A stretch of 64,000 nucleotides of DNA from Homoserinimonas sp. (GTDB taxonomy: Bacteria > Actinomycetota > Actinomycetes > Actinomycetales > Microbacteriaceae). Where the stretch lies: positions 2,481 to 66,480 of the forward strand of contig JBBDSS010000004.1 of assembly GCA_040904805.1 (NCBI GenBank), given 5' to 3'. The notes below the pieces were generated by a model. That model was not told the DNA's origin, made no database searches, and worked only from the letters and a program-made list of their open reading frames with translations. The stretch's first letter is position 1. Each line of letters begins with the position of its first letter. Positions 6,601 to 19,278 of the stretch are shown here, one piece after another. A program made the translations under genes and the position numbers.

Positions 6601-7032
6601 ATGCGCTACGAAACCACGATGTACCAGGTAGGCAACAACACCGGCATCCCAGTCCCCACCGAAATCCTCGACGCCCTCGGCGGCGGCCGCCGCCCCGCCG
6701 TCACAGTCAAGGTGAACGACTTCGAGTACCGCCGCACGGTCGGCTCGATGAATGGGCAGTTCCTGATCCCGTTCAGCTCCGCTCTCCGGACAGAGTCCGG
6801 CATCGCAGGCGGTGACGCGCTCAGTGTCGATATCGAACTCGACACGGCTCCTCGCACGGCGGAACCGGCGGCTGACCTGGCCGAGGCGATGGATGCTGCA
6901 GGCGTCCACCCGGCGTTCGACGCCCTCAGCCCGTCCCGTCAGAAGGCACACGTCACCTCGGTCGAGTCCGCTAAGACGGAGGAGACGCGTGCCCGCCGGG
7001 TGGCGAAGGTGGTCTCGGATTTAGGCGGTTAG
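6601..7032 (+). CDS. DUF1905 / YdeI-OmpD-associated family protein
   Basis: 143 aa from ATG 6601, with GAGGAG upstream. The tracked start at 6406 would overlap the divergent EEP gene. The sequence MRYETTMYQVGNNTGIPVP...SPSRQKAHVTSVESAKTEETRARR resembles this family. Confidence 0.6.
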   Translation: MRYETTMYQVGNNTGIPVPTEILDALGGGRRPAVTVKVNDFEYRRTVGSMNGQFLIPFSSALRTESGIAGGDALSVDIELDTAPRTAEPAADLAEAMDAAGVHPAFDALSPSRQKAHVTSVESAKTEETRARRVAKVVSDLGG

Positions 7033-7045
7033 TCTCTAGGCTGCA

Positions 7046-7417
7046 ATGGTTGGCGCGTGTCCAGCCGGCATGTGCTTGGAGAAATTCACAAACTCGGGGA
7101 TTATCGGGTCCATGCCCGAAAACGCAACGAAGCCGCTATCGCTGAGAGATGACCCCTTTCTAGGAGCTCGTCTTTCCCTTCCTGGTGTAACGCGTTACAT
7201 CAAGTTGCGACGCGCTCGAAGGCTTGCAGTAGCCGGCGCTCTCTTGGCGCTGGCGTCGTTGACCGTTAGCTATGCGATCGGTCTCAATTTGGTCGGTGCG
7301 CTCTCGGGAGCCGTACTCCTGGTGCTGGGTCTAACTGCCACGGTGGCGTACAGCATGGAAGTGCTTGCCACTCCTGCCGTCAGTATTCCAGGTGAGCGAA
7401 TCGCGGACCCATTCTGA
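7046..7417 (+). CDS. hypothetical membrane protein (about 2 TM)
   Basis: 123-aa ORF with an alternative in-frame ATG at 7112. Hydrophobic stretch LAVAGALLALASLTVSYAIGLNLVGALSGAVLLVLGLTATVAY. Its stop overlaps the next ATG (TGATG at 7415-7419). Confidence 0.45.
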   Translation: MVGACPAGMCLEKFTNSGIIGSMPENATKPLSLRDDPFLGARLSLPGVTRYIKLRRARRLAVAGALLALASLTVSYAIGLNLVGALSGAVLLVLGLTATVAYSMEVLATPAVSIPGERIADPF

Positions 7418-8013
7418 TGTTATTTGCGTCGATAGTTTCCAGCACGTTTCTCGCTACGATCGCCGTGATTATCCTGTGGGGGGCATTTCGTGACAGCAAG
7501 CGGCTCGCAGAGGGAAGGAAATTCCTCGCGAAAAGAAACACCCCTGGGAACGATGGATTCCTAGGATTCTTTTCACCTGAGGAGCTCAGGGGCCTCGAGG
7601 AGAACCGCAACAAGTGGATCGACAAACAACTGCCGGACCCTCGAGATGGCGTGATCTCGCGTGATCTCGCACGTGTGTATTGGAGGATCGCGACGCACAA
7701 AGCTGAGACAAGCGACATGCTGGCTGAGGTAGTCATCGTGGTTGCATCGGTGACACTCGGCATCGTGGGCGGGAACCTCTGGATCGCATTGAGTTCAGCC
7801 GGGTTCCAATTGGCAGAGTGGATTGCCTTGCCTGCGATTGTATTCACCCTTGTACTAGTGGTGCTTGCCTATGGGGTGTCGTCGAAGGTCGCCGCTAGCC
7901 GTCGATGGCAGGAAGCAATCCGCTTGTATGCCCGGCTGGGCTGGCCGGAGGAGAAAACCGTCGTGAACGTACCCAAACGAAACGGTTTCCGGCTCAACTG
8001 GTTTTCTCGGTGA
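7417..8013 (+). CDS. hypothetical membrane protein (N-terminal TM, soluble middle, C-terminal TM bundle)
   Basis: 198-aa ORF translationally coupled to 7046..7417. Island-type codon usage. No family recognised. Confidence 0.5.
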   Translation: MLFASIVSSTFLATIAVIILWGAFRDSKRLAEGRKFLAKRNTPGNDGFLGFFSPEELRGLEENRNKWIDKQLPDPRDGVISRDLARVYWRIATHKAETSDMLAEVVIVVASVTLGIVGGNLWIALSSAGFQLAEWIALPAIVFTLVLVVLAYGVSSKVAASRRWQEAIRLYARLGWPEEKTVVNVPKRNGFRLNWFSR

Positions 8014-8029
8014 CTAGGGTGTTGCCCTG

Positions 8030-8905
8030 CTAGACCCGCAAGGGCGCCCACATTCTGCGGTGGTACTTCGCATTGGACACATCAATTTGATGGCCTTTCG
8101 CAAAACTGAGCTCAGTGAACGGCTTGTAGTCGATGGTCCGAGCGACGCTGAGGTCGTCGAGGATGACCATTCCGCCAATGTCGAGCTGCGTGTGGTGGTT
8201 CGGGCAAAGGCACAGAATATTGTCTAACTTGTCAGCGCCGAGATGGGGAGTTCCTAGGGGCTTTACATGTGCGCCTTCCGAGTACAGTCGCTCGCCTATC
8301 CCGGGGATGCTTGATCCACAGACCTGGCACTTGTTCGAGTACATCGATTTCACACGTCGAGACAGGGCGGTATCGCGGAGTCTTCGGATGACAACGCTGC
8401 TTGCATATGCGGGATCTGATTCGGCGGGAACATTGGCAACGAAAGGCTCTTGCTCGGAGACGCGCTCCAGCGTGTAACGCATGAGCGTGAAGCCGTCTGG
8501 GTTTTGTTGGTGCCAGTAGCTCGTCACAAGGTAAAGGCCGGCGTATCGGTACCCTACAGGAGGGGCATACGGTGAGGGCAACTTACTACCGCGGATCACC
8601 CGGACTGGCAAACCTCGGACGAAGCTTGTCGCCAGTGCCGCGTTGCCTCGAGCGGAGGGATCCTGGTCCGCCACCTGCTTCTTTCCGGGCCCCTGTCCTC
8701 CATGCCCCGTGTAGAGAATGTAGTCGCCGTGGTCTTCATCGTCTGGGTAGCCACCCGAAAGGACTATGGCGTCGGCACCCTCATGGGGAGTGCCAGCAAT
8801 CCCGGCTTGTCCTTGGTTGTGGAGTTTGGCGTGACGGAGTTGATCGCGGCTCTCGAAGAGCTCGCCTACCTTGACGCCGTCCGGGGTGCCGAAGAACCGA
8901 ACCAT
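8030..8905 (-). CDS. SRA(YDG)-HNH type IV methylcytosine-dependent restriction endonuclease
   Basis: 291 aa. SRA-like motifs YTGHGGQG, VRVIRG and YRYAGLYLV. C-terminal HNH motif CQVCGSS...HVKPLG...CLCPNHHTQLD. Confidence 0.8.
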   Translation of the reverse strand: MVRFFGTPDGVKVGELFESRDQLRHAKLHNQGQAGIAGTPHEGADAIVLSGGYPDDEDHGDYILYTGHGGQGPGKKQVADQDPSARGNAALATSFVRGLPVRVIRGSKLPSPYAPPVGYRYAGLYLVTSYWHQQNPDGFTLMRYTLERVSEQEPFVANVPAESDPAYASSVVIRRLRDTALSRRVKSMYSNKCQVCGSSIPGIGERLYSEGAHVKPLGTPHLGADKLDNILCLCPNHHTQLDIGGMVILDDLSVARTIDYKPFTELSFAKGHQIDVSNAKYHRRMWAPLRV

Positions 8906-9138
8906 CAGCGTCGCCCTGTGCGTCCGTAGTCGCTTTGATCGAGCGGCTCACTATTTTGCCAGATTGCTGACGCTCGGTTGAGTTCGAGCCACCGGTAGTG
9001 GTCGCGAAGACCCCGACTCACCCCAACGCGAATGATCCCGTACAGGACTAGAAGCCCGACGATCGCGCCAAGCAGTGGGAGCAACACGGCGTAGAGCGCT
9101 GCGACCCATACCAACTCCGTGTCCATGTTGAGGATCAT
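8905..9138 (-). CDS. small single-pass membrane protein, coupled to the SRA-HNH gene
   Basis: 77 aa with TM segment LVWVAALYAVLLPLLGAIVGLLVLYGII. Its stop and the SRA-HNH start share TGATG (complement of 8903-8907). Confidence 0.5.
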   Translation of the reverse strand: MILNMDTELVWVAALYAVLLPLLGAIVGLLVLYGIIRVGVSRGLRDHYRWLELNRASAIWQNSEPLDQSDYGRTGRR

Positions 9139-9309
9139 TTCAGTGATTGGCTTGGACGGCTATCTTTTTCGAGAAGATCAGGGCAATCCGCCCCGATGTG
9201 GGGTCGTCCCAGGGAGGTGCTTCGCGGATGCTTCGCTAATCTGCCTCGGGTCTTGAGTCGGCCACACCAGGAGTGTCAGACGATGGTGCTAGTTCTGGTG
9301 TTGGGTGCC

Positions 9310-9326
9310 GCTCGAACGCTTCGAGC
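9310..9326. promoter_or_regulatory. 17-bp palindrome GCTCGAA-CGC-TTCGAGC, candidate operator upstream of the HTH gene
   Basis: Perfect 7-bp arms. It lies 56 nt upstream of ATG 9382 and is followed by the -10-like TATCAT at 9337-9342. Confidence 0.3.
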
Positions 9327-9381
9327 GCAGCTCCGCTATCATCGGGAACGCTGGCCTGCACGGGCCGCGGTGGGGGGCGAT

Positions 9382-9582
9382 ATGAGCGAGCCGTGGTTGT
9401 CAGCTGACTATGTCGCCGTTCATCTTGGCGTCACCCAAGACGCCGTCTACACCTGGATCCCTGAGAAGCGCATGCCCGCCCACGAGATCGGTCGGCTCTG
9501 GAAGTTTCAGGTCAGCGAAGTCGACGAGTGGGTGCGGACCGGCGGCGCAGCCGCAAACGCGACTGATGGGGCGGGTGACTAA
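9382..9582 (+). CDS. excisionase/MerR-like helix-turn-helix DNA-binding protein (possible controller of the operon)
   Basis: 66 aa from ATG 9382. LSADYVAVHLGVTQDAVYTWIPEKRMPAHEIGRLWKFQVSEVDEWV is a typical HTH_17-type sequence. Its stop overlaps the SNF2 start. Confidence 0.7.
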   Translation: MSEPWLSADYVAVHLGVTQDAVYTWIPEKRMPAHEIGRLWKFQVSEVDEWVRTGGAAANATDGAGD

Positions 9583-12500
9583 CAGCTTGCGCATAATCAA
9601 TAACGTCACAGACTTGCTCGGAGACGATCTGAAGGGCGAAATCACCCCGGGTTCCAAGGTCCGAATCGCTGCATCGACGTTCTCAATCTTCGCGTTCGAG
9701 GCTCTCCGTAAAGAATTGGAGCAGGTCTCTGAGCTGGAGTTTATTTTCACGACGCCAGCGTTCGTAACGGAGAAGATGACGGACAAGCTCCGCAAGGAGC
9801 GGCGTGAATTCTTCATCCCAGGGGGGCACGCCGAGTCGAGCCTGTCTGGGTCGGAGTTTGAGATTAGGTTGCGTAACCAGCTCACCCAGCGCGCAGTCGC
9901 GAAAGAATGTGCCGACTGGGTACGCCGCAAGGTCACGTTCCGTTCGAACGCAACCAGCAACCCGATGCAGCAGTTCGCGGTTGTTGGCGACAGTGCTGCC
10001 TACACATCCCTGCAGGGCTTCACCACGGCTGACCTCGGATACGAGCGGGGCAATGCTGTGTCAAACATGGTGCAACGCGTTGACGAGACTCCGATGACGT
10101 CGCAGTACCTCCAGCTGTTCGACCAGATTTGGCACAATCCCGATCAGCTCGACGATGTTACTCAAACGGTCCATGACCACATTGCCAGCGTGTATGCGGA
10201 GAATGCCCCATCGCGCATTTACTTCCTGATCCTGTACAACCTGTTCGCGGAGTTTCTTGACGACATCAACGAAGATGTATTGCCGAACGATCGCACTGGC
10301 TACCAGGACACGAAGGTTTGGCAGAGCCTCTACAACTTCCAGCGCGATGCGGCGACCGGGATCATCAACAAGTTGGAGACGTATAACGGGTGCATTCTCG
10401 CCGACAGCGTCGGCCTGGGTAAAACCTTCACTGCACTGGCAGTGATCAAGTATTACGAGTTGCGCAACAAGTCGGTGCTCGTGCTTGCTCCGAAGAAGCT
10501 CTCCGAGAACTGGACAAACTACAACGCGAACCTCACGACAAACATCTTCGCCTCTGACAGGTTCAACTACGACGTCCTCGCCCACACCGATCTCTCACGC
10601 ACCCGCGGCGAGTCGCTCGGCTTGAGGCTGGATCGAATCAACTGGGGCAACTACGACTTGGTCGTCATCGATGAGTCGCACAATTTTCGCAACGCTGACT
10701 ACGCCGAGGAGAAGGAGTCTCGGTACCAGCGGCTCATGCGGCAGGTTATCCGAGAAGGTGTGAAGACCAAGGTGCTGATGCTCTCGGCGACCCCTGTAAA
10801 CAACCGCTTCAACGACCTGAAGAACCAGCTCCAGCTCGCCTACGAAGGGGAATCAGAGAACCTCGCACAGCACCTCAACCTCTCCACCACCGTAGAGAAA
10901 GTCTTCAGCGACGCGCAACGGGTCTTCAATGAGTGGTCCAAACTCGACCCTCAAGATCGCACCACCGACCGCATCCTCAAGATGCTGGACTTCGACTTCT
11001 TCGAACTACTAGACGCGGTAACGATTGCCCGCTCACGCAAGCACATCCAGGCTTTCTACGACACCACCGAGATCGGTGCCTTTCCCGAACGCCTCCCACC
11101 GCTCTCGATCCGCGAACCGCTCACTGATCTAGCGGATGCGCCCGGGTTCAACGACATTTTCGAGCAACTGCAGGAGCTCACTCTCGCGGTCTACACCCCA
11201 ATGGCATACGTCTTTCCAAGTCGGATGAGTAAGTACGAGGATCTGTACAACGTCACAACAGGCAACGCCCGCTCTAACCTTGGCCAAGCCGGACGCGAGC
11301 AAGGCCTGAAGAAACTCATGACGGTGAACCTCCTCAAACGACTGGAGAGTTCAGTCGAAGCCTTCCGCCTGACCGTAAGCAGGATCGAAGAGTCTGTGGA
11401 CCGAACCCTGCGTCGCCTTGATTCTCACGCAGGAGCTCTCACTGATCTGAGCGCCGACCTCACCGGCCTTGACTTCGATCTCGATGACGAAGACGACGCA
11501 AACATCGAGGCCATTTCGTTCGGCGAGAAGATCAAGATCGATCTCGACGACCTTGACATCGAGTCCTGGCAGCGGGACCTATGGAACGACCGCGAGACCC
11601 TGCGAGAACTGCTTGACGAGATGCGGGAGATCACTCCGGACCACGACCTGAAGCTCCAGAAAATTACACAACTCATCACAGAGAAGGTCGCACATCCGAT
11701 AAACCCCGGCAACCGCAAGGTGCTGGTCTTCTCGGCGTTTGCTGACACCGCGAACTACCTCTACCGTGAACTCGCCCCAGTGCTCACCAAAGCCGGACTG
11801 GCGACGGCCGTCATCACCGGCGGCAGCCACGGCGCCAAGGCAACTCTCGGCACCGGATTCGACTTCCAGCAGGTCATGGCCATGTTCTCGCCCAAGTCGA
11901 AGCAACGCCACCTCACCATGCCGAAAGAGACGCGTGAACTGGACGTCCTAATCGGCACTGATGTCATAAGCGAAGGACAAAACCTCCAGGACTGCGACTT
12001 TCTGATCAATTACGACATCCACTGGAACCCAGTCCGGATCATTCAGCGATTTGGGCGTATCGACCGCATCGGCTCCACCAATGCTCAGATTCAGCTGGTC
12101 AACTTCTGGCCTGACATCTCTCTCGACGAGTACATCAACCTCAAAGAGCGGGTCGAGAACCGCATGGTTATCGCTGACGTGGCGGGTACCGCCGATGACA
12201 ACGTCCTCACCCTGGAAAACTCCGATGCAGCCTTCCGCAAAGAACAGCTCCGTAAGCTCCAGGATGAGGTCATTGAGCTTGAAGACGTGCGCACCGGGGT
12301 CTCGATCACTGACCTCGGGCTCAACGACTTCCGGATGGATCTGCTCGGTTACATCAAGGACAACGGAGACCTTGCAGGCGTACCCAAGGGCCTGCACGCG
12401 GTCGTTCCTGCGGACGCTGCGAAGGGCCTGAAGCCGGGCGTGATTTTTGCACTGCGCAGCGTGAATGCAGACGATGTTCAGCTCACCGGGAAGAGCGGAA

Positions 12501-12880
12501 ACCGTGGTAACCGGCTCCACCCGCACTATCTCGTCTACCTGGACGATCAAGGTAACGTCATCGCCGACCACACCGAGGCCAAGCACCTGCTCGACCTGCT
12601 CCGCGCCGGATGCCGCCCCTACGACGAACCTACCTCCGAGGTCGTGCACGCGTTCAACGCAGCTACGCAGGAAGGTGCGCAGATGAGCACGTACTCCGGG
12701 CTGCTGACAGATGCGATTCATTCGATGATCGACGTCACAGAAGAACGCGACATCGACAGCCTCTTCACCGGAGGCCAAACCACCGCCCTTACCCAGACCA
12801 TCGCCGGCCTTGACGACTTCGAGCTGATCGCATTCGTCGCCGTTGTGGACCCCTCCACGCCAATTGAGACCAATGGTTGA
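9566..12880 (+). CDS. SNF2-family helicase/translocase with uncharacterised N- and C-terminal domains
   Basis: 1104 aa from ATG 9566. Motif I LADSVGLGKTF, motif II VVIDESHNFRN, motif III MLSATPVNN, motifs V-VI GTDVISEGQNLQDCD...HWNPVRIIQRFGRIDRIGS. The roughly 250-aa N-terminal domain has no HxK motif. Confidence 0.85.
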   Translation: MGRVTNSLRIINNVTDLLGDDLKGEITPGSKVRIAASTFSIFAFEALRKELEQVSELEFIFTTPAFVTEKMTDKLRKERREFFIPGGHAESSLSGSEFEIRLRNQLTQRAVAKECADWVRRKVTFRSNATSNPMQQFAVVGDSAAYTSLQGFTTADLGYERGNAVSNMVQRVDETPMTSQYLQLFDQIWHNPDQLDDVTQTVHDHIASVYAENAPSRIYFLILYNLFAEFLDDINEDVLPNDRTGYQDTKVWQSLYNFQRDAATGIINKLETYNGCILADSVGLGKTFTALAVIKYYELRNKSVLVLAPKKLSENWTNYNANLTTNIFASDRFNYDVLAHTDLSRTRGESLGLRLDRINWGNYDLVVIDESHNFRNADYAEEKESRYQRLMRQVIREGVKTKVLMLSATPVNNRFNDLKNQLQLAYEGESENLAQHLNLSTTVEKVFSDAQRVFNEWSKLDPQDRTTDRILKMLDFDFFELLDAVTIARSRKHIQAFYDTTEIGAFPERLPPLSIREPLTDLADAPGFNDIFEQLQELTLAVYTPMAYVFPSRMSKYEDLYNVTTGNARSNLGQAGREQGLKKLMTVNLLKRLESSVEAFRLTVSRIEESVDRTLRRLDSHAGALTDLSADLTGLDFDLDDEDDANIEAISFGEKIKIDLDDLDIESWQRDLWNDRETLRELLDEMREITPDHDLKLQKITQLITEKVAHPINPGNRKVLVFSAFADTANYLYRELAPVLTKAGLATAVITGGSHGAKATLGTGFDFQQVMAMFSPKSKQRHLTMPKETRELDVLIGTDVISEGQNLQDCDFLINYDIHWNPVRIIQRFGRIDRIGSTNAQIQLVNFWPDISLDEYINLKERVENRMVIADVAGTADDNVLTLENSDAAFRKEQLRKLQDEVIELEDVRTGVSITDLGLNDFRMDLLGYIKDNGDLAGVPKGLHAVVPADAAKGLKPGVIFALRSVNADDVQLTGKSGNRGNRLHPHYLVYLDDQGNVIADHTEAKHLLDLLRAGCRPYDEPTSEVVHAFNAATQEGAQMSTYSGLLTDAIHSMIDVTEERDIDSLFTGGQTTALTQTIAGLDDFELIAFVAVVDPSTPIETNG

Positions 12881-13538
12881 TCTGCTGTACAAGTGGCCCG
12901 TCGCAGCGAAGTTCGGCAGCCGTGTGCCCAAGGAGAAGTTCTACGAGTACGGCAATGTCAGCACGACTGTGCGTGAGAAGTTTGTGTCCGATGTCCTGCG
13001 CATTACCTGGGCCTACAAGCTTGCCGAATCCACCATCAACCTCGCCGGCAGCACGAGCGTGCCTGAGATCCAGATCTTTCATATCGACGCCAAGGCCGGC
13101 GATGTCGCCGATCAGGTGCTGTCTGCGATCGACAAGGCCATCCAGTACCCGATCATCTTCGAGATCACGCGAGTAACGGTTGGCGAACCCCAAGTCCGGA
13201 TGGTCGCAGCACACAAGCACCTCAGCTCGGGCACCTCGAAACTCAGTGCCTACTACTCGACCGGATGGCTCCCTGCTGACGCAGAACGGCAATCGCTCCC
13301 TACGGCAATCAGCCTGCCCACCCTCTACGCGGCGATCATGGAGCCGTTGACGCCGCTGACGGTACGGCCCGGTGAGGAGATGTCAGAGGTCGCCGACAGA
13401 CTGGCAACCGTGCGGAAACTCGAACGCGAGATCACTTCTTTGGAGCGCAGGCTCCGTACCGAGCCGCAGCTCAACCGCAAGATCGAGCTGCGCCGCACCC
13501 TCAAATTTAGACAACAAGAACTCGAAGAGCAGAGGTAA
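12873..13538 (+). CDS. DUF4391-like protein
   Basis: 221 aa from ATG 12873, which overlaps the SNF2 stop (ATGGTTGA). VPKEKFY...ITWAYKLAESTINL...EIQIFHID...AIDKAIQYPIIFEI matches my recollection of the DUF4391 consensus, as does its usual SNF2/methylase neighbourhood. Coiled-coil C-terminus. Confidence 0.65.
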   Translation: MVDLLYKWPVAAKFGSRVPKEKFYEYGNVSTTVREKFVSDVLRITWAYKLAESTINLAGSTSVPEIQIFHIDAKAGDVADQVLSAIDKAIQYPIIFEITRVTVGEPQVRMVAAHKHLSSGTSKLSAYYSTGWLPADAERQSLPTAISLPTLYAAIMEPLTPLTVRPGEEMSEVADRLATVRKLEREITSLERRLRTEPQLNRKIELRRTLKFRQQELEEQR

Positions 13539-13541
13539 CCC

Positions 13542-15416
13542 GTGGAGAAACTACGAATGACGTCGCCAGACCTGACCGACGCCAACATCGACAAGCTCGC
13601 GGACCTGTTCCCAACCGTCGTCACTGAGTCCGTCGACGTTGACGGCAACGTTAAGAAATCCATCGACTTTGACCTGCTCCGCCAAGAGCTCTCCGACCAC
13701 GTCGTCGAAGGGCCGCAGGAGCACTACCAACTCGACTGGCCTGGAAAGCGCGCCGCAGCATTTGCCGCGAACGCTCCGATCGCGAAGACGCTTCGTCCTG
13801 TGCGCGAGGAATCCGTCGACTTCGACATCACCCAGAACCTCTTCATTGAAGGTGACAATCTCGACGTACTCAAGCTCCTCCAGGAGTCTTACCTCGGCAA
13901 GGTGAAACTCATTTTTATCGACCCGCCGTATAACACCGGTTCTGACAGATTCGTATACGAAGATGACTTCGCCGAAGAAGCCGAAGAGTATTTGCGGCGT
14001 TCTGGCCAAATCAACGATCTTGGCGAGCGCGTGCGCTCGAACATCGAGTCGAGCGGTCGATTCCATTCCGACTGGCTAAGCATGATGTACCCACGTCTTA
14101 AGCTTGCGCGAAACCTGCTCGCCCAAAACGGTGTGGTCTTCGTTTCCATCGGTGACGCAGAGGCGGCTTCGCTGAAGCATCTGCTTGACGAGATCATGGG
14201 GGCGAACAACTTCGTCGCGACAGTTGTGTGGCAGAAGGTGTACTCACCGATGAACAGCGCAACACAGTTCGCCTCGGTTCACGACTACATCCATGTCTAC
14301 GCGCGCAACGCGGCAGACTGGACCTCCAATCTGCTTCCGAGGACTGAAGCCCAGGACGCGGCCTACAAGAATTTGGATAGTGACCCGCGCGGTCGATGGA
14401 AGGCGGTTGATGCGACTGCAGCTGCCGGTCACGCCACCCAGAGCCAGTTCTATGAGCTGGCGACGCCAGCGGGAAATCGCTTCACGCCGCCACCTGGTCG
14501 CGCGTGGCTCTATACCGAGCCGCGATTTCAGGAGATGCTCGCAGACGATCGTGTGTGGTTCGGCTCCGACGGCAACGGTAGACCGGCGATTAAGCGATTC
14601 CTGACCGAAGTCAAGCAGGGCCGTGTCGCGCAGACGTTTTGGCCTTACACCGAGGTGGGGCACACGCAGGACGCCAAGAAGGAGTTGCTCGCTCGGGTAG
14701 CTTTCTCTGACGGCGACACAGTCTTCGATACACCGAAACCGACGCAACTCATACGTCGGATGCTCGCGCTCGCTACGTCAACGTCATCCGCGGACGTCGT
14801 TTTGGACTTTTTTGGGGGCTCCGGCACGACGGCTGACGCAGTGCTCCAGCAGAACGCTGAGGACGGAGGCACCCGGCGATTCATCTTGGTGCAACTCCCG
14901 GACGGCGGCGACGACCGAAAGAAAGGCATCCCTGACGTGGCCCGCGAGCGCATCCGGAGTGCCGGACGCGCGGTCTCGGAGGCTGCCGGACTCACGGGGC
15001 ACGGACTCGACGTCGGATTTCGTGCGCTGAGAGTCGACTCGTCCAACATGGTCGACGTCTTACGAACACCTGACGATACAGCCCAGCTTGTGCTCGACGA
15101 ACTTGAGGGCAGCGTAAAAGCAGATCGCACGCACGAAGACCTGCTGTTCCAGGTACTTCTTGACTGGGGCCTCGAACTGACAATGTCGATCTGTGTCGAA
15201 CAAGTACACGAAAACGCAGTGTACGTGATCGAGGACGGTGCGCTGATCGCCTGTTTCGATGACTTAGTTTCAGCCGAGGCCGTGCTCGACATCGCAAAAC
15301 GTCAGCCAATCCGGGCAGTATTTCGCGATTCTGGCTTCGAGTCGGACGCCGCGCGTATCAACACCGAGCAGATCTTCCGCGAAGTGTCTCCCGCCACCGA
15401 CGTTAAGGCGATCTGA
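13542..15416 (+). CDS. type III-like DNA methyltransferase (Mod), beta-class N6A/N4C
   Basis: 624 aa. Motif IV FIDPPYNTGS lies N-terminal to motif I VLDFFGGSGTTADAV. GTG 13542 or in-frame ATG 13557 could be the start. Confidence 0.9.
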   Translation: MEKLRMTSPDLTDANIDKLADLFPTVVTESVDVDGNVKKSIDFDLLRQELSDHVVEGPQEHYQLDWPGKRAAAFAANAPIAKTLRPVREESVDFDITQNLFIEGDNLDVLKLLQESYLGKVKLIFIDPPYNTGSDRFVYEDDFAEEAEEYLRRSGQINDLGERVRSNIESSGRFHSDWLSMMYPRLKLARNLLAQNGVVFVSIGDAEAASLKHLLDEIMGANNFVATVVWQKVYSPMNSATQFASVHDYIHVYARNAADWTSNLLPRTEAQDAAYKNLDSDPRGRWKAVDATAAAGHATQSQFYELATPAGNRFTPPPGRAWLYTEPRFQEMLADDRVWFGSDGNGRPAIKRFLTEVKQGRVAQTFWPYTEVGHTQDAKKELLARVAFSDGDTVFDTPKPTQLIRRMLALATSTSSADVVLDFFGGSGTTADAVLQQNAEDGGTRRFILVQLPDGGDDRKKGIPDVARERIRSAGRAVSEAAGLTGHGLDVGFRALRVDSSNMVDVLRTPDDTAQLVLDELEGSVKADRTHEDLLFQVLLDWGLELTMSICVEQVHENAVYVIEDGALIACFDDLVSAEAVLDIAKRQPIRAVFRDSGFESDAARINTEQIFREVSPATDVKAI

Positions 15417-15421
15417 GCGGG

Positions 15422-18400
15422 ATGAAGCTTCAGTTCAAGGTTCAGCAATATCAGACTGACGCAGTTGATTCAGTGGTTCACGTTTTCGCGGGTCAACCGA
15501 AACGCGACGGTATCTCGTACCTGATCGACCCAGGCAAGGCCAAGCCCGCTGCCAACCCGACGCTGTTCGAGACCAACGAGGCTCCTGACTCTGGTCTGCG
15601 GAACTCAGAGATCGTACTTTCAGCCGATCGACTCCTGGAGAACGTCCACAAGGTTCAGCGGTCTCGCAACCTACCTCTCTCGACGAAGCTCATCGACAGC
15701 AAGGCGGCCCCCGGCGCCCCGAACCTTGACATCGAGATGGAGACGGGGACGGGCAAGACATACGTTTACATCAAGACGATCTTGGAGCTGCACAAGCGAT
15801 ACGGCTGGTCGAAGTACATCATTGTTGTGCCTTCAGTTGCGATCCGTGAGGGCATCAAGAAATCTCTAGATGTGACCGCGGAACACTTTCAGCAACACTA
15901 TGGAACGAAGCCACGGTCGTTCATCTACAACTCTTCCCAACTGCACGAGATCGAGCGTTTCAGCTCCGATGCCGGGGTGCAGGTGATGATTATCAACATC
16001 CAGGCATTCAACGCGACTGGCAAAGATAACCGTCGCATCTACGACGTACTCGATGACTTCCAGTCGCGACGTCCGATCGACGTGATCGCGGCGAACCGAC
16101 CTATCGTGATCATTGACGAGCCGCAGAAGATTGGTGCTGCGAAGTCCCTCGACGCGCTTTCGCGTTTCCACGGCCTTATGATGTTGCGCTACTCGGCCAC
16201 CCACAAAGTCGAGCACACAAAGGTGCACCGCCTCGATGCCTTGGACGCATACAACCAGAGGCTAGTCAAGAAAATTGCGGTGCGAGGTATCACGGTCAAA
16301 GGCCTGGCCGGATCCACCGCATACCTGTACCTAGACGCGATCGAGATTGCCAAGGGTGCGAAGCCGCGTGCTCGGATTGAGATTGAAGTGCAGACCCAGA
16401 CTGGCATCAAACGTCAGGTCAAGCGTCTCGACGTCGGTGCGAACCTGCACGACGTATCGAACGGCATTGAGGCTTATAAGGGCTTGTTCATCACCGAGAT
16501 CGACGCGAACCGTGACGTGATCGAGTTGAGTAACGGTGACGTCGTCATCGCCGGGCAGCTCGCCGACCGCGACGCCACGGAGGAGACGAAGCGGCGCATC
16601 CAAATTCGCGAAGTCATTCGCGCCCACCTGGATAAGGAGCGTGCGCTGTTCAGCCAGGGCATCAAGGTACTCTCGCTGTTCTTCATTGACGAGGTCGCCA
16701 AATACCGTGACTACGGCCGCGAAGACACCCTCGGCGACTACGCCCGCATGTTCGAGGAGGAGTTTGCCGCGATCCGCGACGAGGTACTCGGCGAGCTGGC
16801 GATCGATGACTTGACCGGGGAGTTCCAGCAGTACTTGCGGCGCGATGAGGTCCGACGGGTACACGAGGGATACTTCTCGATCGACAAGAAATCCAAGCAC
16901 CAAGTCGACGGCAATGTCTCCGGCCGTGGCGACGACAAGGGCCAGTCGAACGACATCGATGCGTACGACCTGATCTTGAAGGACAAAGAGCGACTGCTCT
17001 CGTTCACAGAGCCAGTCCGGTTCATCTTCTCTCACTCCGCGCTGCGCGAGGGCTGGGACAATCCCAACGTGTTCGTCATGGGCATGCTCAAGAAGAGCGA
17101 CAACACTATCTCCCGGCGGCAAGAGATCGGTCGCGGCCTGCGCCTCGCCGTCGACCAGCACGGCATACGCATGGACAACCCTGCCACTGTGCATGACATC
17201 AACGAGCTGACGGTGGTCACCGACGAGTCGTACACCGACTTTGTTGCCGGACTTCAGAAGGAGATTTCGGAGTCCTTAGCTGCCCGACCGCGCAAGGCGA
17301 CCCCCGAGTACTTCGTCGGCAAGACTGTTGAGGATGTTCCAACCGGAACCCTTCACACGATCACGCTAGACGAGGCAAAACAACTCCAGCACTGGCTGAC
17401 GATTAATGCCTTTATCGACTACGAGCACCACCTCACTGACAAGTGGCTCGGTCGGGACGAATTGCCTGAGATGCCCGAGCTGCCGGCCTCGCTGCAGCCG
17501 TACTTTTACCAGGTTGCCGAACTAGTTGACGCTCTACACGTCGCGGCGCCGGAGATCACTGACGACCGCAAGCCGAAGAGGATCCCGCTCAACGAGGCGA
17601 ACTTCGCCAAGAAGGAGTTCCAAGCGCTCTGGGGTCGGATCAACCACAAGGCGGTCTACCAAGTCGAGTTCGACTCGGCCGAACTGATCCACAAATCCGT
17701 CGCCCACCTCGACAAACACCTGAACGTCGCCGCGATGCAGTACGTCGTTCAGGCGGGGCAACAGCGCGACCGGCTTGAGGCTGATGACATGGCGAGTGGC
17801 TCCGGATTCGCTGTGTCGACTACGCAAACTCACGCCGAGACCGTGAGCGCTGGCTCTCAGGTGAAGTACGACCTGCTGGGCGAGATTGCTGAGAAGACTC
17901 AGCTGACCCGTCGTACGGTCGCCGCGATCCTGCGAGGGGTGGCGCCGGGCACGTTCGGGAAGTTCCGGCTCAATCCGGAGCAGTTCATCACCGAGGCGGC
18001 GCGATTGATGAACGAGCAGAAAGCGACCGTAATCGTCGAGCACCTCACCTACGACACACTGGAGGATCGGTTCGACTCGGCGATCTTCACCGAGAATCAA
18101 ACCGCGCAGGACTTCAGCAAAGCTGGTGACAAACTCAAAAAACACGTCTATGACTTCGTGGTGACGGATTCGAAGATTGAGCGAGCGTTCGTCACGGAGC
18201 TGGACACCAGTACCGAGGTCGCTGTCTACGCGAAGCTTCCACGCGGGTTCTTCATCCCGACCCCTGTCGGTGATTACAATCCCGACTGGGCGATCGCGTT
18301 CACAGAAGGCAGCGTCAAGCACGTCTACTTCGTCGCTGAAACCAAGGGCTCACTTTCGACCCTTCAGCTCAAGGGTATGGAAGACGCCAAGATCGAGTGC

Positions 18401-18502
18401 GCCCGCAAATTCTTTGCTTCGCTGAGTGAGAAGAACGGTCAGGATGTCACCTACGATGTTGTCACCGGCTACACCGAGCTAATGCAGCTCGTCACCGCTT
18501 AG
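15422..18502 (+). CDS. type III restriction enzyme Res subunit (helicase plus PD-(D/E)xK nuclease)
   Basis: 1026 aa. Helicase motifs METGTGKTYVY, VIIDEPQK, RYSATH and LREGWDNPNVF. C-terminal nuclease-like NPDWAIAF...YFVAETKGS. Confidence 0.9.
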   Translation: MKLQFKVQQYQTDAVDSVVHVFAGQPKRDGISYLIDPGKAKPAANPTLFETNEAPDSGLRNSEIVLSADRLLENVHKVQRSRNLPLSTKLIDSKAAPGAPNLDIEMETGTGKTYVYIKTILELHKRYGWSKYIIVVPSVAIREGIKKSLDVTAEHFQQHYGTKPRSFIYNSSQLHEIERFSSDAGVQVMIINIQAFNATGKDNRRIYDVLDDFQSRRPIDVIAANRPIVIIDEPQKIGAAKSLDALSRFHGLMMLRYSATHKVEHTKVHRLDALDAYNQRLVKKIAVRGITVKGLAGSTAYLYLDAIEIAKGAKPRARIEIEVQTQTGIKRQVKRLDVGANLHDVSNGIEAYKGLFITEIDANRDVIELSNGDVVIAGQLADRDATEETKRRIQIREVIRAHLDKERALFSQGIKVLSLFFIDEVAKYRDYGREDTLGDYARMFEEEFAAIRDEVLGELAIDDLTGEFQQYLRRDEVRRVHEGYFSIDKKSKHQVDGNVSGRGDDKGQSNDIDAYDLILKDKERLLSFTEPVRFIFSHSALREGWDNPNVFVMGMLKKSDNTISRRQEIGRGLRLAVDQHGIRMDNPATVHDINELTVVTDESYTDFVAGLQKEISESLAARPRKATPEYFVGKTVEDVPTGTLHTITLDEAKQLQHWLTINAFIDYEHHLTDKWLGRDELPEMPELPASLQPYFYQVAELVDALHVAAPEITDDRKPKRIPLNEANFAKKEFQALWGRINHKAVYQVEFDSAELIHKSVAHLDKHLNVAAMQYVVQAGQQRDRLEADDMASGSGFAVSTTQTHAETVSAGSQVKYDLLGEIAEKTQLTRRTVAAILRGVAPGTFGKFRLNPEQFITEAARLMNEQKATVIVEHLTYDTLEDRFDSAIFTENQTAQDFSKAGDKLKKHVYDFVVTDSKIERAFVTELDTSTEVAVYAKLPRGFFIPTPVGDYNPDWAIAFTEGSVKHVYFVAETKGSLSTLQLKGMEDAKIECARKFFASLSEKNGQDVTYDVVTGYTELMQLVTA

Positions 18503-18789
18503 GTTGACACCTGGTGCTCTTTCGTAGCTAGGTTCAACTGGCTTCGACGATCCATTCGCGTCGCTTGGTCGTTGACCGGACTGCCACCACCGACCTGTTC
18601 CAAGATGTCGCTGCTCCCGCACACCGGCGGGGCTGCTTGAGATTTTGAATGGCGACCGGATGAGGCGTGACGAGCCGCGGGCCTCAACAACTATATGGAA
18701 GGGCATTACACCGTCATCAACATGGTGCTAATGCGCCCTTGGAAGTTCCGACTGGTCCTATGCTTTCAGCAAGTAGACCTGGAGGCAGC

Positions 18790-19278
18790 ATGGCGTGGTA
18801 CGAGTGGGCTTTCAACGGTGTAGGCGCAGCTCTAATCGTTTTCCTGCTGACCTGGTTTATCGGGCGACGGGCAACGCGTGCTGGGAAGGGTGGCAATGCT
18901 TCCGTCGGCAAGAGTGGATACGCTCGGGGAGGCAAAGGTGGCGGCCCGGGCGGCGGTGCCGGCGGGCATGCCTCAGTAGGGGGTAGCGGGGTGGCCCTTG
19001 GCGGCGATGCCGGGGGCGGCGGCCCTGAAAGCTTCATTGCGCGTGGCGGTGCTGGCGGCGGCGGTTCGATCAGCGGGGACGGATTCGTCGCCGGTGGTGA
19101 GGGCGGCGAAGCTAGCCAAAGGGATCGGGGCGGGCGAGGCGGACGAAGCGGTGCTGAAGCAGCGGGTGTGCCAAACCAACAATTTCCGGACGGCAGTTGG
19201 CTCTGGGACTACGGCAGGGGTGGCGACGGAGCTTCGCCGCTGCCGGATGAATCCATCGATGGACAGGCGAGCAACTAG
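18790..19278 (+). CDS. glycine-rich membrane-anchored protein, unknown function
   Basis: 162 aa from ATG 18790, with GGAGG 5 nt upstream. N-terminal TM VGAALIVFLLTWFI, then repeated GG.G..ASVG / GGAGGGG blocks. A/T-ending codons match the island. Confidence 0.5.
   Translation: MAWYEWAFNGVGAALIVFLLTWFIGRRATRAGKGGNASVGKSGYARGGKGGGPGGGAGGHASVGGSGVALGGDAGGGGPESFIARGGAGGGGSISGDGFVAGGEGGEASQRDRGGRGGRSGAEAAGVPNQQFPDGSWLWDYGRGGDGASPLPDESIDGQASN

Follow-up and report, generated by a model that had tools for sequence, protein, structure and literature searches.

Classical type III restriction-modification enzymes are the textbook example of long-range communication along DNA through an ATP-triggered sliding switch, for which just two proteins, Mod and Res, are thought to be needed. 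Their cleavage reaction is ATP-dependent and requires two inversely oriented unmethylated sites. Motors of the SNF2 family (DrmD, BrxH, HmaA, DpdE and ZorD) are found within other DNA-targeting defence systems, several of which are methylation-based (PMC12839542; bioRxiv 10.1101/2021.12.28.474362). In class 1 DISARM an adenine methyltransferase marks a non-palindromic site (bioRxiv 10.1101/2021.12.28.474362), Hma and the BREX-related 'BR' systems are defined by genes for an SNF2 helicase, a DUF1156 methyltransferase and a DUF499 ATPase (PMC11232893, PMC12839542), and a gene combining a phospholipase D (PLD) domain with SNF2 lies upstream of Cj0031-like enzymes (PMC9881135). Here we analysed an operon that joins a type III system to an SNF2 motor. 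It occupies positions 9382–18502 of a 64-kb window, by which we mean the whole stretch of DNA under study, taken from a metagenome-assembled genome of Homoserinimonas sp. (Microbacteriaceae), and encodes, in this order, a small helix-turn-helix (HTH) protein, an SNF2-family ATPase, a DUF4391 protein, Mod and Res. The core of the operon is a type III system, and the conserved SNF2-DUF4391 add-on and its logic are undescribed in the open-access literature.

All five open reading frames (ORFs) lie on the + strand, and their junctions overlap or nearly abut. Reading the sequence directly, we found that the TAA stop codon of the HTH gene (9580–9582) and the ATG of the SNF2 gene (9566–9568) create a 17-nt overlap, and that ATGGTTGA at 12873–12880 contains both the ATG of the DUF4391 gene and the TGA of the SNF2 gene. 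Only 3 nt separate the TAA of the DUF4391 gene (13536–13538) from the GTG of the Mod gene (13542), and 5 nt separate the TGA of the Mod gene (15414–15416) from the ATG of the Res gene (15422). An earlier note on this DNA, made from its letters alone, had described a coupled five-gene operon with these overlaps and gaps; the junctions were confirmed in the sequence and the packing is conserved in relatives. Two start codons are uncertain. Public gene calls place the start of Mod at ATG 13557, giving 619 amino acids instead of the 624 obtained from GTG 13542. For SNF2, gene callers take ATG 9566; TTG 9587 gives a protein beginning with MRIINN, and it is here that the N-termini of most homologues (MRIINN/MKIIDN) align. 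With the latter start a 4-nt gap after the HTH stop codon replaces the overlap. The genes are tightly packed whichever of these SNF2 and Mod starts is true. The DUF4391 protein of the window was 100% identical to a protein of a Homoserinimonas sp. record, and the gene order on that contig was the same.

The SNF2, DUF4391, Mod and Res genes were found as a cassette of fixed order in other genomes. A pattern-limited scan with one genome per species returned at least 538 DUF4391 loci, the best 80 of which, all from Actinomycetota and with 54–91% identity, were analysed by tblastn with the window proteins; counts refer to loci whose contig extends far enough. Wherever the contig sufficed, these 80 loci displayed the order SNF2-DUF4391-Mod-Res on one strand, with the exception of L048, in which Mod is truncated and Res is absent. 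A metagenome scan with a divergent DUF4391 clade (38–47% identity to its own query) added 80 further loci. SNF2 was located upstream in 68/68 of them; downstream, Mod was present in 64/65 and Res in 37/39, and the deviating loci are truncated or carry cargo. Annotations show this gene order also on plasmids of E. coli, Acinetobacter, Methylotuvimicrobium, Vibrio, Acetobacter, Weissella, Listeria, Lactococcus and Bacillus cereus, as well as on an Erysipelothrix element that was deposited as a phage. Altogether, plasmids and elements with the cassette came from Gamma- and Alphaproteobacteria, Bacillota and Thermodesulfobacteriota. Among 5426 complete E. coli genomes the cassette is a rarity, present in 10 and plasmid-borne in nine of the ten copies; the E. 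coli plasmid versions exhibit 58–60% identity for SNF2 and Res. Among approximately 175 loci there was no SNF2-DUF4391 pair without an adjacent type III Mod, save those truncated by deletion or insertion sequence elements. Co-conservation of the pair with Mod and Res, on which the proposal of the earlier note depended, was thus observed in nearly every sampled locus and in several phyla.

Moreover, the tight packing recurs in relatives, and for this reason it is more than a chance property of the window. The SNF2 and DUF4391 genes overlap in 115 of 158 loci (by 4 nt in 75 and by 8 nt in 34); an overlap or a gap of at most 30 nt was counted in 146, and a large gap in only ten. At the DUF4391-Mod junction an overlap or a gap of up to 30 nt was present in 118 of 149 loci and a large gap in 27, and the corresponding numbers for the Mod-Res junction were 85 and 26 of 113. 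Cargo inserts split both of these latter junctions. When 60 actinobacterial loci were compared with the window proteins, SNF2, DUF4391 and Res had identities that correlated with each other (r=0.75–0.81), whereas Mod identity correlated weakly with that of the other three proteins (r=0.31–0.40). Searching plasmids by tblastn with Res yielded 291 records. The 39 records with at least 46.7% identity were on DUF4391 plasmids, apart from one clear exception and one record that was not checkable against the DUF4391 list. In the next tier, Firmicutes matches with about 44% identity, the helicase and a short DUF4391 are also there. Only a DUF4391 remnant is left on Clostridium taeniosporum pCt3.

In many relatives other defence genes are inserted into the cassette. 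Between DUF4391 and Mod we found an OLD-family nuclease with DUF2130, or an unknown gene followed by SIR2 and HerA. Around Mod and Res the inserts were a Schlafen/AlbA_2-HATPase_c_4 protein, an AAA ATPase with DUF4276, or a second (split) Mod. Cargo-bearing loci are L156 (10680–13972), L178 (3012–8378), L008 (12574–16329), L110 (7913–9559) and L092 (7204–8998). In these arrangements the cassette behaves as a docking site for defence cargo. Three other loci are of note for their surroundings. On the Bacillus cereus plasmid pMRY14-0057_1 (L173, 3143–16876) the SNF2-DUF4391-Mod-Res genes are immediately preceded, at a distance of 32 nt and on the same strand, by drmA and a DUF1998 (drmB-like) gene, and this locus could be a hybrid of DISARM core genes with the cassette. 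In the E. coli plasmid pRHB17-C02_4 (CP057716.1; L084, 3.2–12.6 kb) the cassette is located just after repA; the IncFIB plasmids also carry genes for a 'porphyrin biosynthesis protein' and an AAA ATPase, a content that may resemble that of SSU5/pHCM2-like phage-plasmids. The 90-kb Erysipelothrix element phi1605 (L177), deposited as a phage, has the cassette next to mef(A)/msr(D), and its DUF4391 protein is mis-annotated as a methyl-accepting chemotaxis protein.

The SNF2 protein (9566–12880, + strand; 1104 amino acids, with a possible true start at TTG 9587) matched the SNF2-rel_dom, Helicase_C and ResIII families. Its ATPase core (10316–12145, + strand) consists of two RecA-like lobes with a long insertion, and Pfam matches covered residues 255–425 and 714–836. 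Regular expressions located GLGKT at residue 283, DESH at 369, SAT at 407 and QRFGRIDRIG at 827. The C-terminal region of about 240 residues (12146–12880, + strand) lies inside the full-length homology with plasmid homologues; residues 871–1104 matched no Pfam family, even at E≤10. SMARCA5, RapA, ISW1 and other SNF2 proteins were the sequence matches in the PDB. Walker A, DExH and motif VI are kept in 113/113 full-length homologues. The clade is sharply bounded, as full-length plasmid matches with at least 40% identity are followed by an abrupt fall to partial matches with at most 28%.

The first 250 residues of the SNF2 protein (9566–10315, + strand) form a separate domain with about 60% identity between Actinobacteria and Proteobacteria. 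The top PADLOC model for the whole protein was 'HKD+Snf2' (C3a139, E=2.1e-118); matches to the DrmD, BrxH, HmaA, DpdE and ZorD models were partial only. The E. coli homologue aligned along the entire HKD+Snf2 profile (positions 4–947 of 948), and the Desulforapulum homologue gave a weak PLDc_2 match (E=0.005). An AlphaFold2 model of the domain was poor, with a predicted local distance difference test score (pLDDT) of 56, since the alignment was shallow (sequences of at least 59% identity), and was used solely for ranking the PLD superfamily. This superfamily accounted for 37 of the 40 top Foldseek matches in the PDB (best E=3e-3), which included phospholipase D, phosphatidylserine synthase, the NgoAVII R protein and SauUSI. 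A PDB profile search matched the SNF2 core alone. HxK occurs nowhere in the protein. Among the 113 full-length homologues HxKxxxxD was found in none and GFT in 111. A relative on a Nostoc plasmid keeps HAKAYIFD...GSSNFT, and the window protein has ...QGFTTADLG at the aligned position. On this profile, fold and motif evidence the N-terminal domain is a degenerate, presumably inactive HKD/PLD nuclease domain. The complete loss of HxKxxxxD, the complete retention of the ATPase motifs and the PLD/HKD-fold evidence together suggest that the clade descends from nuclease-helicases which lost the nuclease and kept the motor. The earlier note had correctly reported the absence of HxK from a region of roughly 250 residues; this region is not an unknown domain.

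That Nostoc sp. plasmid, pn2, carries the closest SNF2 relative outside the clade (L176, 2553–11201), with an intact HKD motif and about 26% identity. The gene is preceded by an HTH gene, a TaqI-like (type IIG/PglX-like) methyltransferase gene and two hypothetical genes, and the locus is adjoined by a viperin gene and other defence genes. By its gene content it may represent a separate, little-studied restriction-like system.

The identification of ORF 12873–13538 (+ strand) as a DUF4391 protein of 221 amino acids, proposed in the earlier note, was borne out by PF14335 (E=1.9e-50). The match reached 172.3 bits, with a gathering threshold of 29.9, and covered model positions 3–232 of 232. At E≤1e-3 the family comprises 1248 clusters at 50% identity. 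A confident AlphaFold2 model (pLDDT 96, predicted template modelling score 0.88, 41-sequence alignment) consists of an alpha/beta domain of about 130 residues and a C-terminal helical hairpin (residues 170–220) bearing a conserved EKQFNRKVELN-type motif. Foldseek with this model retrieved nothing at E≤1e-3 in the PDB or BFVD; the weak top matches were MPN-domain subunits and CorA, with TM scores of about 0.2. The sequence had no PDB match and no matching model in PADLOC, NCBIfam or PHROGs, and five different DUF4391 proteins were without a PADLOC v2 match. A PD-(D/E)xK nuclease was considered and rejected. Although E65 and D87 are conserved, the putative (D/E)xK position is variable, with K, T, R or C in place of E97 in some members and without a following lysine, and there were no nuclease structural matches. 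The invariant acidic/lysine triad of nucleases is absent, and the conserved residues form no recognisable catalytic set. Lacking both structural or PDB matches and a recognisable catalytic residue set, DUF4391 is likely to be a non-enzymatic, structural partner of the SNF2 protein. Two apparent fusions with Mod were discarded as evidence for an interaction. P0270, which joins DUF4391 to the start of a methyltransferase, looks like a frameshifted read-through, and P0143 carries a 500-residue helical extension unrelated to Mod, its locus being the same cassette with SIR2-HerA cargo.

A short form of DUF4391 (185 amino acids) is encoded on Firmicutes plasmids of Listeria (L089, 6509–7066) and Lactococcus (L090, 6583–7140). 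The Listeria protein is annotated as a hypothetical protein only. The family hidden Markov model detects the short form with E values around 1e-15, indicating that simple searches undercount the family.

Mod and Res display the features of their families. Mod (13542–15416, + strand) matched N6_N4_Mtase (PF01555, E=2.2e-34) and, over its full length, the PADLOC model MTase_III (PDLC03634, E=5.5e-212). DPPY (motif IV) at residue 122 stands before FGGSG (motif I) at residue 419. In 40 actinobacterial homologues identity to the window residue was 62–92% in residues 1–200 and 24–36% in residues 200–400. The variable central region of about residues 200–400 (14154–14756, + strand) is presumed to be the target-recognition domain, and its divergence follows the pattern expected from a swappable recognition region. 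Res (15422–18502, + strand; 1026 amino acids) combines a superfamily 2 (SF2) ATPase with a C-terminal PD-(D/E)xK nuclease, and matched ResIII and the PADLOC model REase_III (PDLC03647) with 1058 bits over residues 1–1024. The nuclease domain (residues 906–1015; 18137–18466, + strand) was recognised by Pfam RE_endonuc (PF19778, E=1e-32). GTGKT was located at residue 109, DEPQ at 232 and PDWAIAF...VAETK from residue 954. Walker A and DEPQ are present in 87/87 full-length Res homologues and PD...ExK in 86/87. All motifs that the earlier note had read in Mod, Res and SNF2 were recovered by regular expressions. The NCBIfam model PRK15483, which stands for the EcoP15I/StyLTI type, aligned over the full length (E=1.6e-115) with 387 bits and thus below its cutoff of 564. 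A score below the cutoff despite full-length alignment points to a distinct type III Res clade rather than an EcoP15I equivalog. As the intact nuclease motif of the operon is confined to Res, this protein is the predicted cutter. Based on established family knowledge and intact motifs, Mod-Res can be assigned with confidence to type III restriction-modification, in which specificity and the marking of self would fall to Mod, and the ATP-triggered switch and cleavage to Res.

What the pair of additional proteins contributes can be deduced from these data only tentatively. The reading we favour, at somewhat less than an even chance, is that the operon is an extended type III system in which an SNF2-DUF4391 complex serves as a second, directional motor alongside Mod-Res on DNA that is unmethylated, strengthening or widening restriction. 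Mod, a beta-class N6-adenine or N4-cytosine methyltransferase, would mark host DNA at a short sequence and confer specificity, and the SF2 ATPase and PD-(D/E)xK nuclease of Res would do the cutting. Since their genes are translationally coupled, SNF2 and DUF4391 would form a stoichiometric sub-complex. In this complex SNF2 would use ATP to translocate along double-strand DNA; its ancestral HKD nuclease would have been inactivated, leaving a dead domain that might serve as a DNA-binding or dimerisation module. DUF4391 would be a non-enzymatic adaptor which, by means of its alpha/beta domain and coiled-coil hairpin, might bridge the motor to Mod-Res or to DNA. The action of the pair would depend on Mod-Res and be confined to DNA in which Mod-Res has detected a lack of methylation. 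In the most speculative step, the second motor would provide directed movement or clear bound proteins, abilities absent from a diffusing type III complex, and restriction would be strengthened or broadened, for example towards DNA with all sites in one orientation. The small HTH protein is probably the transcriptional regulator of the operon. The obligate linkage, the translational coupling and the co-divergence with Res argue for a second motor, as do the preserved ATPase motifs, the uniformly dead nuclease domain and the recurrence of related SNF2 motors in DNA-targeting defence.

Several points weigh against a second motor. Mod and Res suffice in classical type III systems, in which such a motor is not needed. 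On the Aeromonas veronii plasmid pHX3 a Res of the same clade (57.8% identity) is encoded with Mod, an AAA ATPase and DUF4276, and neither SNF2 nor DUF4391 has left a trace there. Mod-Res can thus be maintained on its own, so that the add-on is no structural necessity; this is a hint that the two components are sufficient. The frequent location of cargo exactly between DUF4391 and Mod fits two separable modules equally well as one machine. Furthermore, the loci were found via DUF4391 or plasmid records, and rare SNF2-DUF4391 pairs with other partners could have escaped. The specific role proposed for the SNF2 motor is a guess. A more far-reaching version, which is improbable as it stands, holds that a type III enzyme that otherwise diffuses becomes, through SNF2-DUF4391, a two-motor restriction machine of a new subtype. 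Here DUF4391, as a new fold, would couple the directional SNF2 translocase to Mod-Res, the dead HKD domain would act as a clamp or dimeriser, and DNA would be cut regardless of site orientation or number. If this were true, it would close a loophole for phages that escape type III restriction by having sites in a single orientation.

The same linkage evidence is equally open to the explanation that SNF2-DUF4391 governs the type III enzyme instead of boosting it, protecting the host from its own enzyme or recycling it. We consider this unlikely, and the same holds for its detailed form, in which the pair would strip off Mod-Res that has stalled or assembled on transiently unmethylated chromosomal sites or is still bound after cleavage, like RapA recycling stalled RNA polymerase. 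RapA is in fact among the closest solved SNF2 relatives by sequence, and the dead nuclease domain speaks against a direct role in killing. A protective function would also suit a cassette on mobile elements, which need to be established in new, unmethylated hosts; for safe establishment, however, the HTH regulator is already a simpler route. Type III systems are, moreover, intrinsically protected after replication through the two-site orientation rule, as is textbook knowledge, and A. veronii keeps Mod-Res of the same clade without SNF2-DUF4391. Between a governor and a booster the sequences do not separate.

A further explanation, which we regard as quite unlikely, is that SNF2-DUF4391 constitutes an independent two-gene defence system, such as a sensor and a motor for abortive infection or replication interference, that merely shares a docking site and a promoter with the type III genes. 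The locus does attract cargo, as unrelated defence genes (OLD with DUF2130, SIR2 with HerA, Schlafen-like, AAA with DUF4276) are repeatedly embedded in the cassette and the DUF4391/Mod boundary is a frequent insertion point. Unlike cargo, however, SNF2-DUF4391 is present in nearly every locus in fixed position and order, and in the approximately 175 loci it occurred neither by itself nor with a different partner. It diverges in step with Res, and with the HKD domain dead the pair is left without an intact effector domain. The idea that the cassette represents all or part of a DISARM-type system (SNF2 being DrmD and Mod being DrmMI), normally acting with DrmA/DrmB encoded here or elsewhere in the genome, is very improbable: DrmD is the top NCBIfam match of SNF2 (NF038317, E=4.1e-46) and the B. 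cereus plasmid has its DISARM genes directly upstream on the same strand as the sole DISARM link, but the DrmD match is partial and stays at 157.8 bits with a cutoff of 610, tblastn with the B. cereus DrmA and DrmB had no matches in the 64-kb window or at any of the other loci, Res is a complete type III Res, and DrmMI is described as pfam13659 (bioRxiv 10.1101/2021.12.28.474362) whereas Mod is a full-length type III Mod of PF01555.

The HTH protein (9382–9582, + strand; 66 amino acids) is a small DNA-binding protein of the HTH_17/excisionase family (Pfam HTH_17, E=4.9e-10; TIGR01764 excisionase domain, E=4.7e-11). It also resembled MAD1 of the MADS system (PADLOC mad1, E=1.9e-9; NCBIfam NF047737, E=3.7e-15), with 55.9 bits remaining below the NCBIfam cutoff of 80. 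A homologue is encoded immediately 5′ of SNF2 in 52 of the 80 actinobacterial loci, and an HTH gene is annotated at the same place in Methylotuvimicrobium, Desulforapulum and Vibrio plasmids.

The operon lies in a region of low G+C content. From approximately 7000 to 19000 the G+C content is 55–61%, compared with typically 64–70% in the rest of the window, and the whole block looks horizontally acquired. There is no tRNA gene in the 64-kb window and hence none at the island edges, and no integrase was detected among the genes called in the 10 kb to each side of the DUF4391 gene. A promoter and terminator scan of the locus gave counts not above those of shuffled sequence. Within the same island a divergent neighbour of the operon (8030–8905, − strand) encodes a SAD/SRA and HNH protein (Pfam E=1.9e-43 and 1.3e-8), which from its domains looks like a type IV-style nuclease against modified cytosine. 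A 77-residue ORF (8905–9138, − strand) precedes this gene on the same strand, with one base common to both. Only one other locus (L064) has a homologue of the SAD/SRA-HNH protein near the cassette, with 39% identity. At the edge of the island two abutting ORFs of 123 and 198 amino acids (7046–7417 and 7417–8013, + strand) had no family matches in Pfam, PADLOC, NCBIfam or PHROGs.

The composite defence module of the earlier note, inferred from gene association, may thus be described as a type III core to which a large multi-phylum clade adds an SNF2 motor and an uncharacterised protein, kept in lockstep with Mod-Res and with the ATPase motifs of both motors intact in all full-length homologues. 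Finding the role of the pair could yield the first function for DUF4391, a family of more than 1000 sequence clusters, could reveal how a chromatin-remodeller-type motor cooperates with a restriction enzyme, and could account for the recurrence of SNF2 proteins in methylation-based defences such as DISARM, BREX-related systems and Dpd. The natural E. coli plasmid versions make the question directly testable in a standard host. As a docking site for defence cargo, the cassette would also bear on how defence islands are built and annotated, since current tools would give only 'type III restriction-modification'.

Searches of open-access papers and bioRxiv retrieved no mention of PF14335 and no description of the SNF2-DUF4391-Mod-Res gene set; for DUF4391 they yielded an entry in a list of enriched domains and an apparent misprint for DUF7941, and nothing functional. 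The earlier note had allowed for a prior publication of exactly these genes, and none came to light in these sources. Papers on Hma, BREX-related systems, class 1 DISARM, programmed inversion and lactococcal restriction-modification describe related SNF2 or HKD-SNF2 proteins and not this gene set.

With MADS the operon has in common a small HTH protein resembling MAD1; besides the low MAD1 score, no other mad model was among the best 25 PADLOC matches of each operon protein, and membership was rejected. Neither the operon proteins nor the genes called within 10 kb included PglZ, BrxC or a PglX-type methyltransferase, which led us to reject BREX. Hma and 'BR' systems likewise employ an SNF2 motor, sometimes with an N-terminal HKD nuclease, together with a methyltransferase and a restriction-modification-like logic (PMC11232893, PMC12839542), and the SNF2 protein matched HmaA partially (PADLOC, E=2.3e-28). 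In the operon, however, the nuclease resides in a separate type III Res and not on SNF2, DUF4391 is missing from the descriptions of Hma and 'BR', and neither DUF499 nor DUF1156 was found in the operon or its flanks, so that membership was rejected here as well.

Class 1 DISARM (DrmD and DrmMI with DrmA, DrmB and DrmC) is similar in placing an SNF2 ATPase gene beside a DNA methyltransferase gene in a multi-gene defence operon. The operon analysed here differs in having DUF4391 and a type III Res, and in being without DrmA, DrmB (DUF1998) and the active PLD protein DrmC. There were no Pfam or PADLOC matches to drmA, drmB or drmC in the operon and its immediate upstream neighbours, and the genes called up to 10 kb away in both directions contained none. 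As SNF2 also stays under the DrmD cutoff, DISARM membership was rejected. The absence of DISARM and BREX hallmark genes, noted earlier, therefore holds for this locus. The likeness to DISARM, which had been called conceptual, goes further in Bacillus cereus plasmids, where the cassette directly follows drmA-drmB.

The HKD(PLD)-SNF2 nuclease-helicases (PADLOC C3a139; Nostoc pn2) resemble the window SNF2 protein in overall architecture, with an N-terminal PLD-fold domain followed by an SNF2 core and a DNA methyltransferase as partner. They retain the catalytic HxKxxxxD...GSxN and are presumably the nuclease of their own systems, whereas the motif is lost in all 113 homologues of the window protein. 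Their partner is a type IIG/PglX-like methyltransferase; the window operon has a type III Mod and keeps its nuclease in a separate Res.

Also among the closest known systems are the classical type III systems EcoP1I, EcoP15I and StyLTI. As in these, Mod is encoded upstream of Res and shows the beta-class motif order and a variable central region, and Res, which can be aligned with type III Res from end to end, has an intact SF2 ATPase and a C-terminal PD-(D/E)xK nuclease. The operon differs from them in a Res that scores under the EcoP15I-type cutoff, and in the conserved, coupled upstream genes which it adds to the type III core: an SNF2 motor with a dead HKD domain, DUF4391 and often an HTH gene.

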